From positions 1 to 64,000 of the forward strand of contig NW_026939745.1 of the NCBI RefSeq assembly GCF_032062105.1: a DNA stretch of 64,000 nt. The letters are read 5' to 3'. The notes under the pieces were generated by a model. That model was not told where the DNA came from. It saw nothing but the letters and a program-made list of their open reading frames with translations, and did not search any database. The position numbers and the translations under genes were made by a program. Origin of the DNA: Saccostrea cucullata. Its lineage: Eukaryota. Positions 32,849 to 64,000 of this stretch are shown piece by piece; position 1 is the first letter of the stretch; each line of letters starts with the position of its first letter.

Positions 32849-33667
32849 TACCATGGTTCCGACCTTTTTGTTCTTGAAAAAGTTGATAATGCCGATATAG
32901 AACTTCTTTTTGACATTTTAGAGGTAAGTCGGTGCTATTTAGAATGTACACTGTTTGTCCGAAATATTACATACCAGCGTTACAGTCCATTTGACCTTGA
33001 CCCTTGACCTTCCTTGCAAAAATACGACAGATGGTTACATTTTATTTATGTTTTTAGAATAAAGAGGGGTATAGATTTGATTTTTAGCATTATTACATAT
33101 TTATATGCTCATGACAATGTACTCTGACACTGCATGAAATACAAAAACCACAAAAACAAAAACAAAAATAATATGAAAATACATCGGGATCTGTATTCGA
33201 AAATAAGTAAAGACAGAACTGAAGTATCTTTTGAAGAATTGTTGAAATCACTTTCTTATTAAATTAATTAATAAATATTAATTGATAATACATGTAATTT
33301 AAATTTCATTAATATCTTTTTAGGTTGGAGGGGGGGGGGGGGGTAGGAATTTGTATTTCTATTTGATTGTAAAATTTTATCGCCTCATGTGATTTAAATT
33401 TTTATTTATTATTTTTTTCATGAAATATATGTGTGTACATGTAGCAGATAAATAGCTGACCATTCTTAGATTTAGTTCTATATTAAATGAATCTAAAAGC
33501 AGGAGACACATACCGTCCTTGAATAAAGTTATGCTTCCGTTTCAGATTTCTTCATGATAATCGATACATCAACATGGACCATATCCCTCGAATATCAGAA
33601 GCGGTCTATGTGGGACTGTGTCGTCAACTAGGAACCCCAACAGAAGTCAGGGTTCAGGAGAGAGATA

Positions 33668-35629
33668 ATGGATACTGCGGAGGATGTAAACAGACCTGTG
33701 GAAATAATGAAGGGTCTAGAGAATATACAGAGTGGAAGTTGGCGTGAGGGATTCCGAATACCTACCTCAGATATAGATATGATGCATTGGTCTTCATATC
33801 ATAAGGTTATTTGTGAAAACTTTCAGATTAATCTCTACCGTAGCCCAAAACACACTTTGATTCTGATGGAGTGCAATGATCTACCCCCAGGATTTTCCAA
33901 ACTAATTTTGATTGGTCAAGCAAAGGATGAAATCTTAGGAAACTCATGTATTATTATCAATAATGAAGTTTATATATCGAGTTGTTTATTTCGTGAATAT
34001 ACTTTGCGTTCCCTCCATAACATCTCATTTACTCCTTCATTGAGAAATGTATCTCATGGTCCTTGTTTTACATATGTCATAGCCCAGCACAAAGAAATAG
34101 ACAATGTACTTTGTTTACGGTCACACCACTGGCCGACAGACGCTCTACCATGGATGCAGAGATGTCATCAACAAGGTTGGCCAGTCGAGAATGTTCTATC
34201 AGAAATACTACGTGGAGGATTCCATGTTGTTCCTATAGGAAGCACTCCTGAAAACGAAGAAGAATGGAGAATCTCATTCTCTCGAGCAGAACAAAAACTC
34301 GTTTACTCAATGGATCACTGTCAGTTTTTGTGTTATGGTCTCTTTAAAATATTTCTTAAAGAGGTCATTAATTCTCAGTGCAATACACAAGTTCTATCTT
34401 CGTACTATATAAAAACAGTTGTATTCTGGGTAATTCAGACGAAAAGGTCTTTGGCTTGGACACCTGAAAACCTATTAGCTTGTTTTTGGGAATGCTTTAA
34501 ACTATTGATATACTTTGTTCATAACGGAGAATGCCCAAACTTTTTTATTCCACAAAACAACATGTTTCGACTGAAAATCACCGGTTCTGTGCAAGCTTCA
34601 TTGTTCAGACAGTTGTGTTATCTGTATTATGAAGGGATATCATGTCTTCTGTTTAGTCCAACCCTCAGACGTTTTCTTAGTATTCCCATTGTAAACAGAA
34701 CATTGAGTGTCTGTACAAACGAGGTCAGGTTCATATCTAGCGCTGAATTAGATATGAGCTTTGTCAGAGAACTACCTGTGTTTCAACATAAATTATCCTG
34801 TTATAAGAAAATTTTAGTTTGTATGAAACACATAGAGAGGGTGATTAGGGGAAGGTTGACACCGTATCAGACAGTTACTTTACAGTGTTTAACATCAGAT
34901 ATTTTAAGGAAAACTGCCATGTTTATAGAGAATTCTATACATCCTACCGGTGCTTTAACACAAAACAAGGTTTATTACAAAGCCAACAAAGAATCACAAT
35001 TTCTTAAACTTTCATGCAAATTTGGTTATGTGTCTGATACTCTGTATCTTGCTATGTACTTCTACAGAACATGGAGGTATGAGCAATCATTTAAGTGTTT
35101 AAAGAAAGTGCAGAAGAAGATGTCATTGCCATTTGTTATACATTATAATCATGTTGATGTAGATGCGTATCGACAGCACATGGTAGGCAAGTCTCTTTGC
35201 TACAAATTCAGGAGAGCTTCAATAAAAAATATTGACTTTTTTAATGAGTACACTTACATTGATGAACTAGTATTAGAACAGAAAATCAGTGAAAAGAACG
35301 GAGTATTTACCTTGCTTATCCCGCCTCTAGTGATGTTACACACGTTGTTTATACTGAATCACCACAGACTGGGTGACACAGTCAGGTCACACCAATCTAT
35401 ACAGGATCTACAGACTCTGCTGCTGCAAGATGACGGAGTTTACATAGAGACAATGCTCAGAGATATCTCTTGGCAAATACTGGGGATCTGTCAACAAATC
35501 GGTGGAGACCTCGAAGGTGCTCGAGAGTCTTTTCTAAATTCGTTAAAAGAAATACCACTGCACCAAATCCAGGAGGCGACAAAATTGAGAATGTCCACAC
35601 GTACTTATGGAGAAAATTTTACATGCTAG
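33668..35629 (+). CDS. cGLR: cGAS-like receptor (Mab-21 nucleotidyltransferase + TPR-like C-terminus), copy 1; ancestral start ATG 33574 is out of frame by +1
   Basis: Catalytic triad in [19 protein letters not shown] and EIDNVLCL; Mab-21 motifs [33 protein letters not shown] and [15 protein letters not shown]-like [23 protein letters not shown]. Splice acceptor at 33545; single coding exon. Confidence 0.92.
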
Positions 35630-60992: not shown

Positions 60993-63900
60993 TCAATTAT
61001 TGACAAAGAACTCACAAACAAATCCGTACTTATAGTCGTGGTGAGTGTCATGGCAGTTAAAATTATCAGACGCCTTTAACCTAATACGGTTTTCTCTTGG
61101 GCCGTTCGTTAGTATTGTAGGACAGAAGAAATCCGGGAACTGTGTACCATCATGAAACTCCCAAATTCCGTTTGACTTCTTTCCTTGAATCCAGGCCTCA
61201 GCTGTCGATATGTCAGCTGTCAGCTCTAAAACATAAATGTATCAAACTGACAAAATTTTATTTGAAAATGTTAAAATGAATGTTCAATTGAAAAATTTCT
61301 AATATAACTTGACTCCGTCATTTTCTCATTTATTGAAGACATGGCATTCTGATGTCTTGTGATAGGTTTTATGAGACATTCTCTGTAATGAATTGTACTT
61401 TTTATTGGAGTCGGGACACATAGTCCCAAAATTTCTCCATACTCCAGGTATGAAAAAAGCCTTTGGTATCATAAACTTATATGAGGTAAATGTTGCTTTG
61501 TCTTACGATTACAAAGCTTACATATGTTGAAATAAAGCAATTTTCAACATGTTTAGAGTCCTTTTTCTGAAGATTGCAACAAAGAAAATTGACAACGACT
61601 GTTTTCGAAAGTCAAAGATGTCTTATCCGGGAAAATAATTATTACCTTTGTCAACAAATCTTTTTAATTTTTTTTTTTCATTTTGATTAAATAAATTATG
61701 CGTTCAGAAAATGAAAGCAAATTATTAATAAGTTAAAAAGTAACCAAAAATAAAAAGAATTCATTGTTGCGGAAAGCAAAAAAGTTTGATATAACTTCTT
61801 TATAGGTTTAATCTGATTTTATCTTTTTACCCAGCTTCTCCATAAATCATATAACTTAGTGCTACTTTTCTAATTCAATATATGTTTAGATAACGTAAAT
61901 GTACTCGTTAAATAATATCGATATTTTCATGACGCCATTTACAGCCATATTGCAATACTGGTAAAACTACTCTATGAAACAAATCCAATTAGTCTTTATA
62001 TAATGAGCCAGTAGGGTAAAATACAATCCCGAAATAATTAAAATCCTTTACTTCTTCTATGGCACTGCCATTTTCAGTAAAATTATTCTTTGGCTGTCTA
62101 CCCTTTGGGAAAAATAAGAATCTTTGTTTTCTTGATATCACAGACAATTTCCATTATTCACAATATTTGTAAAATTCATTTAATATTCTCTGAAGATCTT
62201 CAGCCGTTTCCACAAGAATTACAGTATCATTGGCATAAAATTGGATAAACAATTTCTTAAACAAAAATAGCTTATCCTCTATACCTTTGCAATGCTGGAC
62301 AAACCTACAATATTCTTTTTTTTCACCTTGTCGTTCACCAACATAACAAATAAAAATTAAAATTAAAATGACAAACCATTAATCTAAATTTTAGATTTGA
62401 TAACATTATACATATTTTTAATAAATGTAAAACATTTCCCATTTTCACCACTTTATAGTAGTGTAAATGATATTGTAAGTGGTTACAGTGTATAGCTCTT
62501 AATTACTGTAAAATCACATATTTTCGTGGGGTCAAAATTTTTTCGTGGTTTAAGGAAAAAAATGTTGTTCGTAGGGATTTGGTTTCGTAGATAGAGAACT
62601 TCTTAGAAGTTGTGTATATGAAATTTTACATTTCGTGGTGGTCATGAATTCTTTGGTCTCCTCATACCTCAAAAACAACGAAAATTAAACCCCCACGAAA
62701 ATTAGTGATTTCACAGTATGTAATTATTACTTATTGAATTAATTAATAATAATTTAATCATTTTAATAATTAAAGTTTATCTCTTCTGTCCATTTTTCAT
62801 GTACTATTCAACTTCAACTTCAATGTTGATACTCGCGAAAATCCATTAGGACATTTATCAGGGAGGACTATGTACATGCGTGTAGTGGAATGTCCAAATG
62901 TAAAAAAAAAAGCAATAGCTTGTAAATAATTAAATACATTAAAAGAAAAAACTCAATTAACTGACCTATCAACTTCTTCAAGACGTTGTATTTCTCCACA
63001 GAATCCATCCTTATTAATTCTGCACTTTCCAACAGACAAGCGTTGTTTGCATCTGCATACATAACAGATGTCTCCTCAAAACAAAGACAGGATGTGACGT
63101 CAGTGCAAGTGTACAGCAAGTAACCACTCGGACAGGCTGTCAAATAAGTTTTTTTTTCCAATAATCAGCATAAAATAATTAAATATACATGTATTTACAT
63201 GTAATATCTGTTTCAAATAAACTTCGTAACAAATCTTATCATTTATTACATATTAGAATATTTTTGTATTGTTTATGGATGTCTCTCTCTCTTTTTTCGT
63301 TTACATGTATACAGTTAAATTAATTCACAACTAATATAATTATGTCGATATATGATATTGGCTCATCAAAATACCGTATCAATGTCTTAGTTCCTTCATT
63401 ATCATTTTGTATGCTACGATAAGCATTTTGAGGCGGCATCCTATATATGTGTGAAATGCAATGACTTTTGAGCTTGAATACTGTTCTTTATCTCCATATA
63501 TTTCTAAGTAATACAGATACAGGTGTGATTTTGATGTATCTCGATCATACCTCAAATTTCAATTAAGAATTTCCATCATGCAATTTTCCTGTTTTATCCT
63601 GTTTAGAGTTTAGAATAGGGGTGCATATAAAAAAAAATAGATGCAGTTTTTTGTATTTATTTATCATTTTTTTAAATTATGAAGCAAGTCCAATTGAATT
63701 GAATATTAAAGTGGAATATTAACAGGACACGCATTTTGATGATGCATATCTGGGTTTTGCCTTTGTAAGTTAAATGCACTGAATTTAAATAGCATTGACT
63801 TGTTAAGTAAGATTATTGTCTGAAGTACCATATTCTAGATAGGTAAATAACGACTCAATTTAATGTTAACTTACTGTTTAATAAATAAGTCATCCACTGA

Positions 63901-64000
63901 GTTCCATTTATGGTCAAAGTTCCTCTTGTATGCGGTGGACAACAATAACAGCATCCGGAATCTCGATCCCGACTTATCACATAGAGAAACATACAGGATT
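60993..64000 (-). CDS. PAN/apple-like + atypical C-type lectin gene, copy 2 (5' end outside window); exons >64000-63875, 63136-62966, 61225-60993
   Basis: Same exon lengths (171 and 233 nt), splice sites and open frame as copy 1. Confidence 0.85.
62506..62716. mobile_element. TA-TSD MITE present only in duplication unit B
   Basis: TA|CTGTAAAATCAC ... GTGATTTCACAG|TA. The empty site CTCTTAATTATGTAATT is visible in unit A at about 42100. Confidence 0.9.

Follow-up and report, generated by a model that had tools for sequence, protein, structure and literature searches.

The window, a stretch of 64,000 nucleotides of Saccostrea cucullata DNA, carries two unrelated gene families interleaved over ~30 kb. 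Genes of the Mab-21/cGLR type are found on the forward strand and genes encoding a PAN-like and a C-type lectin domain (PAN-CTL) on the reverse strand, with the cGLR and lectin genes in convergent orientation (Table 1). Open reading frames, Pfam searches and self-BLAST confirmed the gene order, the strands and the existence of a duplication, all as given in a preliminary description of this DNA.

Table 1. Features of the cGLR and lectin locus, in window coordinates.
Feature	Position	Strand	Remarks
5' UTR intron splice acceptor of cGLR1	33544..33545	+	conserved ahead of cGLR2 (50024-50025)
cGLR1, single coding exon	33574..35629	+	Mab-21 nucleotidyltransferase core and ~300-residue helical (TPR-like) tail
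Duplicated segment, copy 1	35185/35186-43338	+	cGLR1 tail, spacer, lectin 1; self-BLAST
Lectin 1, 235 aa, open	39723..43516	-	exons 43516-43213 (hydrophobic leader, PAN-like domain), 42503-42333, 39955-39723 (C-type lectin-like domain)
CTL pseudogene, intronless, canonical-type	~45100-44738	-	Lectin_C E 9.4e-5
cGLR2, sister paralog of cGLR1	50061..52087	+	59% amino acid identity, dS 0.74
Broken retroelement	52575..55489	+	RT ORF 53725-54942; inverted ends 123 bases, 86%
Decayed 3' fragment of cGLR1, ~440 bases	56557..56995	+	83% to cGLR1, 72% to cGLR2
Duplicated segment, copy 2	56557 to past 64000		left edge is the cGLR fragment; self-BLAST
Lectin 2	60993..64000	-	exons 64000-63875 (exon 1, cut by window end), 63136-62966, 61225-60993

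The duplicated segment and the lectins

In the self-BLAST of the window, the first copy of the segment (35185-43338) matched the second (56557-64000) through seven blocks that are 81-93% identical, which corresponds to a tandem segmental duplication of ~8 kb with a dS of 0.10. It had been proposed that a cGLR-tail/lectin pair was the duplicated unit. Lectin 1 and the tail DNA are indeed repeated, but the second cGLR tail is a decayed scrap that contains stops and four indels. This fragment has accumulated 34 private changes (6 synonymous, 28 nonsynonymous) versus 17 in cGLR1 (7 and 10; p 0.024), and the DNA upstream of it showed no homology to the cGLR1 body, with similarity not above that of shuffles. 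The cGLR piece in the duplicated unit is thus a pseudogenic passenger, and therefore no working pair was co-duplicated; such a pair would have both partners intact in each unit, which is not the case here. On the 3' side of cGLR2 there is no lectin unit, and homology ends after ~220 bases of its 3' flank. Between cGLR2 and the 3' scrap lies a retroelement, putatively Penelope-like; its open reading frame matched RVT_1 below the Pfam cut-off (E 3.9e-5).

The introns of lectin 1 are GT-AG and phase 1, and one RNA-type contig (X1 record 6) stops exactly at the 39955 acceptor before 39 further letters, so that splicing of this lectin is observed. The visible part of lectin 2 is open over 175 codons. 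The two differ by 13 nonsynonymous and 10 synonymous changes (dN/dS 0.31), and by this measure the lectins look to be under constraint. Single lectin exons of the window gave no Pfam match, PAN included. The C-type lectin-like domain was recognized through the family: lectin 1 aligns to CTLD-bearing members at E 1e-31 to 1e-40, one of them (P0132) matches Lectin_C at E 1.8e-7, and the family profile and model match solved CTLDs. ESM features of the PAN-like domain scored 0.93 to PAN_1 clusters (29/30 matches), and it has six conserved cysteines, where a PAN module would have three disulfides. The first ~23 residues, hydrophobic by eye, form a putative signal peptide. Searching with lectin exon 1 returned no full-length relative among 19 candidates, and a representative library gave 13. 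None of the motifs EPN, QPD, WND, WSD and WHD is present in lectin 1. The lack of EPN/QPD and WND counts against canonical calcium-site-2 sugar binding, although sugar binding has also been described for bivalve CTLs that carry other motifs, according to the available part of one study (PMC12842671). The orphan CTL pseudogene, interrupted by three in-frame stops and a single change of frame, is not of the subfamily to which lectins 1 and 2 belong.

Reading frames of the two cGLR copies

Both cGLRs have long open reading frames (33632-35626, 665 codons, in cGLR1; 50114-52084, 657 codons, in cGLR2) that exceed the Pfam cut-offs for Mab-21 and Mab-21_C. They had been described as sensors, but their intactness was not confirmed: in this assembly both are frameshifted before the catalytic GS motif. 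In cGLR1 an extra base within a short G run causes a +1 frameshift at ~33648-33651, near codon 27, and the frame from the family start codon at 33574 runs for 57 codons to a stop at 33745. In cGLR2, 25 bases are missing ahead of the GS motif, and the frame from the family start codon at 50061 runs for 37 codons, with a stop (codon 38) at 50172. The distance from start to GS is 157 bases in cGLR1 and 131 in cGLR2, whereas 64 of the 120 best-matching relatives (out of 1089) have 156 bases, or 52 residues, and tblastn with five intact relatives split each gene into two frames. In this assembly neither copy has one uninterrupted frame that begins at the family start, covers the spine helix and reaches the active site. 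The in-frame restart ATGs at 33668 and 50186 are where the database models begin (P0001, 653 aa, and P0006, 633 aa). These downstream methionines hide the frameshifts, so that broken copies are included when "cGLR sensors" are counted in oyster genomes.

Each full-length copy is damaged at one site only; the five catalytic residues are all retained, and the following 633-653 codons are open. At 161 conserved columns the window copies show 10 and 7 departures (family range, 1-21). None is at G54, S55, D66 and D68, invariant in 89 sequences, or at D173, nearly so. The post-hoc chance that both lesions fall within the first 52 of ~675 codons is ~0.006. The active-site motif GS ... [DE]h[DE] ... 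[DE] is present in both, preceded by S, not Q/T, and with the third acid ~105 residues on. Nucleic-acid-sensing cGLRs are expected to have a basic surface and a pI of >8.5; here the pI is 8.5 and 8.7 for the whole proteins and 6.9 and 7.1 for the first 360 residues (relatives, 6.1-9.1).

Structural homology to cGAS/CD-NTase was judged on a model of the intact relative P0007, 58-60% identical to the window copies, not on the copies themselves. The model has helices at residues 5-18 and 22-45 and a strand at 49-53, and its alignment with cGAS starts at residue 7-10 (301 aligned, rmsd 2.9, Z 27.7). Because these helices align to cGAS, the lost N-terminal segment is part of the enzyme core, and proteins made from the in-frame restarts would lack the cGAS spine helix partly or completely. 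The tail is all-helical in the model; its TPR_2 matches are below cut-off and its structural look-alikes, at TM ~0.5, are beneath the bar of the tool. Beyond the acceptor, the 5' flanks of cGLR1 and cGLR2 share no similarity above shuffles. One contig (X2 record 16) starts at 33544 with 25 letters unplaced, which is compatible with a spliced leader.

Alleles, relatives and linkage

RNA-type contigs of four runs were compared to the locus; such contigs show presence, not absence. Three of them, from three runs, cross the cGLR1 break, and each has exactly one base fewer somewhere. An intact frame fits one of the three, whereas the net length of the other two puts them out of frame. This suggests that cGLR1 alleles vary and that others may be intact in some oysters. 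Another contig (X1 record 2) carries a frame-breaking +1 in 34315-34559 of cGLR1. None of the contig pieces listed over cGLR2 is closer than about 85-92%. A candidate result, that the extra cGLR1 base was common to three runs, was withdrawn, as the controls had covered insertions only.

The tailed Mab-21/cGLR clade is large (1089 relatives matched). A quick tree joined the two window cGLRs as each other's sister (97), nested in a clade made up of Saccostrea sequences alone (98), and showed genus-specific expansions. Among the best 120 of the 1089, truncated gene models make up 10 of the 29 rows labelled S. cucullata, versus 0/13 in Ostrea edulis, 0/12 in Magallana and 0/4 in S. echinata; in the family, truncations occur all along the gene.

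Synteny in relatives had been put forward in the preliminary description as a check on linkage. In O. edulis the nearest relatives of both families share one 77.1-Mb chromosome-scale record: on the PAN-CTL side 2/2 relatives, on the cGLR side the closest clade (P0029, P0030, P0033 and P0144). The two CTL relatives from S. cucullata are on contigs (98,348; 229,984) that coincide with no contig of the 29 cGLR rows of this species within the 120 best of 1089 hits. None of the literature titles searched concerned linkage between cGLRs and lectins.

Origin of the locus and comparison with known systems

We consider it probable that the locus arose as two immune families, both expanded in bivalves and neighbors by chance, went through ordinary birth-and-death turnover. 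Turnover had already been suggested, and it fits well with the genus-specific expansions and with the broken state, in this assembly, of cGLR1, cGLR2, the fragment and the orphan CTL. The accompanying idea of cytosolic sensing coupled to extracellular recognition was not supported: the duplicated cGLR part is dead, cGLR2 has no lectin unit behind it, two screened relatives from the helical-tailed clade are outside the set of enzymes flagged as making cyclic dinucleotides, and the lectins are without canonical sugar-binding motifs. An old tandem duplication produced cGLR1 and cGLR2 (dS 0.74), and a younger segmental duplication of ~8 kb (dS 0.10) copied lectin 1 together with the final ~440 coding bases of cGLR1, a piece that later decayed. 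The frameshifts are probably recent. cGLR2 would be a null in this assembly; for cGLR1, some oysters would still have an intact locus, and the copy seen here would be a null allele or the result of a one-base error in the assembly. What the duplication kept would be the lectin duplicate, leaving two families that seem to lack functional coupling. Intact cGLRs are most likely cytosolic nucleotidyltransferases with a cGAS fold, regulated by a ligand via the helical tail, and the lectins putative secreted recognition proteins that would not use the canonical calcium site. The single lesion per copy, the retained catalytic residues, the ordinary conservation of the long frames, the low chance of both lesions falling so near the start, the co-location in O. 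edulis and the cGLR1 contigs, one of which fits an intact frame, speak against this reading. Read as turnover, the locus offers a clean example of the process in immune genes.

An assembly error behind one or both breaks, which would make the cluster an unremarkable tandem array in which working cGLRs adjoin lectins, seems unlikely. Only one surplus base, within a short run of G, breaks cGLR1, the three contigs across it are one base shorter, and the fragmented annotation of S. cucullata has a larger share of truncated models than those of the other oysters; however, a shortfall of 25 bases in cGLR2 is no typical base-calling slip, and two of the three contigs are out of frame regardless. We find it very unlikely that the frameshifts are tolerated, with the downstream ATGs giving N-terminally shortened decoys or scaffolds that would keep the whole helical tail while being crippled as catalysts. 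Each lesion does precede an in-frame ATG with the rest undamaged, a paralog isoform is annotated without exactly the first 50 residues (P0018 versus P0147), and the available part of a study on shrimp reports Mab21 proteins active without making cyclic dinucleotides (PMC12928593). Nevertheless, the upstream ATGs persist and would be encountered first, the lost helices belong to the fold in the P0007 model, the frame-breaking indel of X1 record 2 lies further downstream in the contig of another individual, truncations of family models are scattered, and no alternative acceptor was found to exceed the main one. Just as doubtful is the broader proposal that an N-terminal frameshift plus restart turns enzymes of cGLR arrays into catalytically weak, tail-bearing regulators, the two copies having each lost the start of the cGAS spine helix independently, with intact and shortened alleles segregating. 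Functional shortened proteins would add a sensor-to-regulator route to invertebrate cGAS-like signaling, which is now unsupported.

The least probable reading, to which we give very little credence, is functional coupling, with cGLR sensors and secreted lectins retained and duplicated together because they are co-regulated in one immune response. Adjacency, the shared duplication, the single O. edulis record and the RNA-type contigs for both the cGLR1 and lectin loci in run X1 would agree with it. The dead fragment, the breaks in both full copies, the convergent orientation, which leaves no shared promoter region, and the separate contigs of the S. cucullata CTL relatives do not. Moreover, macrosynteny among oysters alone predicts that neighboring genes share a chromosome. 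Functional linkage would amount to a new kind of mixed immune cluster, at present unsupported.

The window cGLRs belong to a catalogued clade. Crassostrea virginica LOC111100146, LOC111100817 and LOC111100526 have the same ~675-aa architecture in a single coding exon, with 49-52% identity to cGLR1. In the available parts of Li et al. 2023 (PMC9980059), Table S1 already lists this helical-tailed clade, with a core that begins at residue 7, and samples 98 and 99 (LOC111100821 and LOC111101641) were screened and are outside the 15 flagged active enzymes. Like clade members there, the window cGLRs lie in tandem arrays and have the GS...DxD...D residues, and accepted members share the S before GS and the ~105 spacing; unlike them, they are frameshifted before GS and form a Saccostrea-only subclade. 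In the relative P0007 the core fold is that of the active Cg-cGLR1 and Cv-cGLR1 (dsDNA-activated, 2'3'-cUA; PDB 8gjw, Z 26.4), although identity to these and to mammalian cGAS is only 17-20% and the screened constructs were ~360 aa without the helical tail. Lectin 1 shares domain order and cysteine pattern with oyster PAN-like plus CTLD proteins of 222-238 aa (O. edulis LOC125662565 and LOC125663154, C. angulata LOC128173742, C. gigas LOC109620613), at 31-36% identity over ~200 residues; these uncharacterized proteins lack EPN/QPD/WND as the window lectins do. Expanded CTL repertoires and presence/absence variation in bivalves are cited in the available portion of PMC10140915. The locus resembles the tandem birth-and-death arrays of bivalves in its lineage-specific expansion, tandem copies, pseudogenes and interspersed transposons, and differs from them by the interleaving, within 30 kb, of two families that are unrelated, for which there is no sign of anything beyond proximity.

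Organization of the locus and the duplicated unit

The window is AT-rich animal DNA with many repeats. In 33574..64000, the gene order and strands of the preliminary description were borne out, with two Mab-21/cGLR-type genes (cGLR1 and cGLR2), a cGLR fragment, two genes with PAN-like and C-type lectin domains (lectins 1 and 2) and a separate C-type lectin pseudogene (orphan CTL).

Features of the window and their coordinates
Feature	Coordinates	Strand	Description
Assembly gap	~8200-8365		168 N, sole gap in window
DDE_Tnp_4 transposase	9297-11520	-	Two long ORFs, 317 + 451 codons
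Tandem repeat	14787-16232		197-base unit, 7.3 copies, 98% matches
LINE-type element, in pieces	20928-26862	+	Coiled-coil ORF, endonuclease, reverse transcriptase; several frames
Related tandem repeats	28156-28722, 31715-32850		165- and 110-base, opposite orientation, 65-87% alike
cGLR1 long ORF	33632-35626	+	Pfam Mab-21 and Mab-21_C, both above cut-off
Lectin 1	39723..43516	-
Retroelement terminal sequence, short copies	42800-42831, 63468-63499, 45689-45808		Contig depth very high
Orphan CTL	~45100-44738	-	Three stops, one frame change
Palindrome	45902-46082		180 bases, MITE-like
Dispersed repeat	~48990-49320		Very high copy
cGLR2 long ORF	50114-52084	+	Pfam Mab-21 and Mab-21_C, both above cut-off
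Broken retroelement	52575-55489		Between cGLR2 and fragment
cGLR fragment	56557-56995	+	83% to cGLR1, 72% to cGLR2
Lectin 2	60993..64000	-

Self-comparison showed a second copy of 35185-43338, in seven blocks of 81 to 93% identity, that begins at 56557 and continues to the window end; the left boundary of the unit falls within the cGLR1 coding tail. As a duplication, the cGLR-tail/lectin unit proposed earlier is real; the lectin is what the duplication preserved, and the cGLR part is a decayed passenger. With cGLR2 as the outgroup, the fragment has 34 private changes (6 synonymous and 28 nonsynonymous) and four indels, versus 17 (7 and 10) and zero indels for cGLR1 over the same region (p 0.024 for totals, p 0.09 for the ratio), a contrast indicating that the fragment decayed freely while cGLR1 remained constrained. 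Similarity to the cGLR1 body was absent from the kilobase 5' of the fragment, and the 3' flanks of cGLR2 and cGLR1 are alike for only ~220 bases, followed by the broken retroelement. In 400-base bins, the duplicates are 85% identical at the cGLR tail, a value that climbs to 97% by exon 3 of the lectin. Free decay accounts for the cGLR scrap alone and not for the whole of this uneven identity, and partial gene conversion across the lectin end of the units is possible. Comparing 35200-43300 with 56570-64000, the first 2.4 kb are 83 to 91% identical, the lectin exon 3 area 92 to 97% and the region beyond 89 to 95%. Intron 1 of the lectin in both units contains one retroelement-terminus copy; the palindrome and the dispersed repeat were the deepest bins in all four sequencing runs.

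The three exons of lectin 1 are separated by phase-1 GT-AG introns and join into an open frame of 235 codons. The start of lectin 2 lies beyond the window end, and its 175 visible codons are open. The two differ at 10 synonymous and 13 nonsynonymous sites (dS 0.10, dN/dS 0.31), and the lectins are constrained. Record 6 of run X1 terminates precisely at the predicted lectin 1 acceptor (39955), with 39 letters over, in favour of splicing. The family consists of uncharacterised oyster proteins of 222 to 238 aa, in which the PAN-like domain is suggested by language-model features and the CTLD was recognized by profile and model. EPN/QPD and WND motifs are absent from both lectins; according to PMC12842671, sugar binding is still possible for bivalve CTLs with odd motifs.

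N-terminal frameshifts of cGLR1 and cGLR2

The N terminus is conserved in this family, the GS motif lying 52 residues beyond the initial methionine in 64 of the best 120 of 1089 relatives and at least 46 residues beyond it in 101. In the window this N terminus is encoded from ATG 33574 (cGLR1) and ATG 50061 (cGLR2), in a frame differing from the rest of each gene. cGLR1 carries one extra base near codon 27 (157 bases from start to GS versus 156), with a stop after 57 codons, and cGLR2 has 25 bases too few, with a stop after 37. The preliminary description presented both as sensors, having missed these frameshifts ahead of the GS motif. Database models of the two genes are only shortened ones, from downstream ATGs (653 aa for cGLR1, 633 aa for cGLR2).

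The AlphaFold model of an intact relative, P0007 (pLDDT 91.6), contains helices at residues 5-18 and 22-45, followed by a strand at 49-53. Its alignment to cGAS (Z 27.7, rmsd 2.9, 301 aligned) begins at residue 7-10, in what is known as the spine helix. The segment missing from both window copies is thus part of the enzyme. Li et al. 2023 (PMC9980059) place the start of the core of the tailed cGLR clade at residue 7. All five catalytic residues are retained in cGLR1 and cGLR2, departures at 161 conserved columns number 10 and 7, respectively (family range, 1 to 21), and dN/dS between them is 0.38. Since the downstream parts look healthy, the lesions would be recent.

Contigs from 4 of 23 listed runs, each with less than half of the sampled words, were compared with the window. 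Three contigs called RNA-type (on record for X5, guessed for X1 and X2) span the cGLR1 break at 96 to 97% identity; each has one base fewer somewhere along its length plus 2, 6 or 4 extra bases, and net length is compatible with an intact frame in one of the three (X2 record 16). A further X1 piece has one additional base within 34315-34559. Among 14 tabulated cGLR1 pieces, a set excluding one ~86% paralog piece, the net change was not a multiple of three in 3, and 7 were gapless. From these counts, the extra base may be haplotype-private or may have arisen in assembly; the locus seems to vary, some alleles being broken and others possibly intact. Pieces listed over cGLR2 are about 85 to 92% alike and probably derive from paralogs.

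Probable birth-and-death turnover and its alternatives

The duplications, together with the decayed fragment and orphan CTL, agree with the birth-and-death reading offered earlier, and turnover of two expanded families sharing a neighbourhood is the probable explanation. The data directly display the duplications, decay of the fragment and of the orphan CTL, the cGLR frameshifts of this assembly and constraint on the lectins; on this reading the frameshifts would be recent, the copies null and functionally uncoupled from the lectins. That the breaks are assembly errors is unlikely; truncated cGLR models amount to 10/29 among S. cucullata entries and to 0/13, 0/12, 0/4 and 2/17 in other species (labels hand-copied), which would favour such errors. 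We regard it as quite unlikely that the shortened proteins are functional, an idea favoured by two observations. Of ~675 codons, only the first 52 are hit by the two lesions, for which a chance near 0.006 was calculated post hoc. A paralog, S. cucullata LOC134260853 (P0018/P0147), is also annotated with an isoform that lacks precisely residues 1 to 50, and the methionine on which this isoform begins corresponds in position to the restart of cGLR2.

A coupled cGLR-lectin locus is very improbable. Genes neighbouring in one oyster are expected on a shared chromosome in another, so the single 77.1-Mb O. edulis record carrying both lectin relatives and the closest cGLR clade (3 of 13 entries, plus P0144), a comparison of records without positions, speaks neither for nor against coupling. 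By length, the contigs carrying the two CTL relatives from S. cucullata differ from those of all 29 cGLR entries of that species among the best 120 of 1089, and a literature search reaching few subscription journals found no title on cGLR-lectin linkage. The layout is real and its cause probably ordinary, birth-and-death turnover having left new members of known families, mostly broken.

Among the best 120 of 1089 matches, the closest to the first long ORF are S. cucullata and S. echinata proteins (53 to 60% identity), followed by Ostrea and Crassostrea, and a quick tree of 50 hand-picked sequences places cGLR1 and cGLR2 within a Saccostrea-only clade (support 98), which points to a Saccostrea rock oyster. 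P0002 and P0044 form a tandem pair of this cGLR clade on one 103,014-base contig; their gene numbers are consecutive, and one of the two is full-length whereas the other is short at its C terminus. The cGLR tail (~300 residues) is all-helical, with TPR matches below cut-off. The clade is already catalogued in Table S1 of Li et al. 2023 (3/3 loci looked up; PMC9980059). That study includes the close relatives LOC111100821 (P0040) and LOC111101641 (P0047) among 140 screened proteins, with no note there marking either among the 15 active enzymes chosen; both may have weak activity. The oyster enzymes described there as making 2'3'-cUA on dsDNA were ~360-aa constructs from another clade (PMC9980059), and share 17 to 19% identity by structure with the intact relative P0007.
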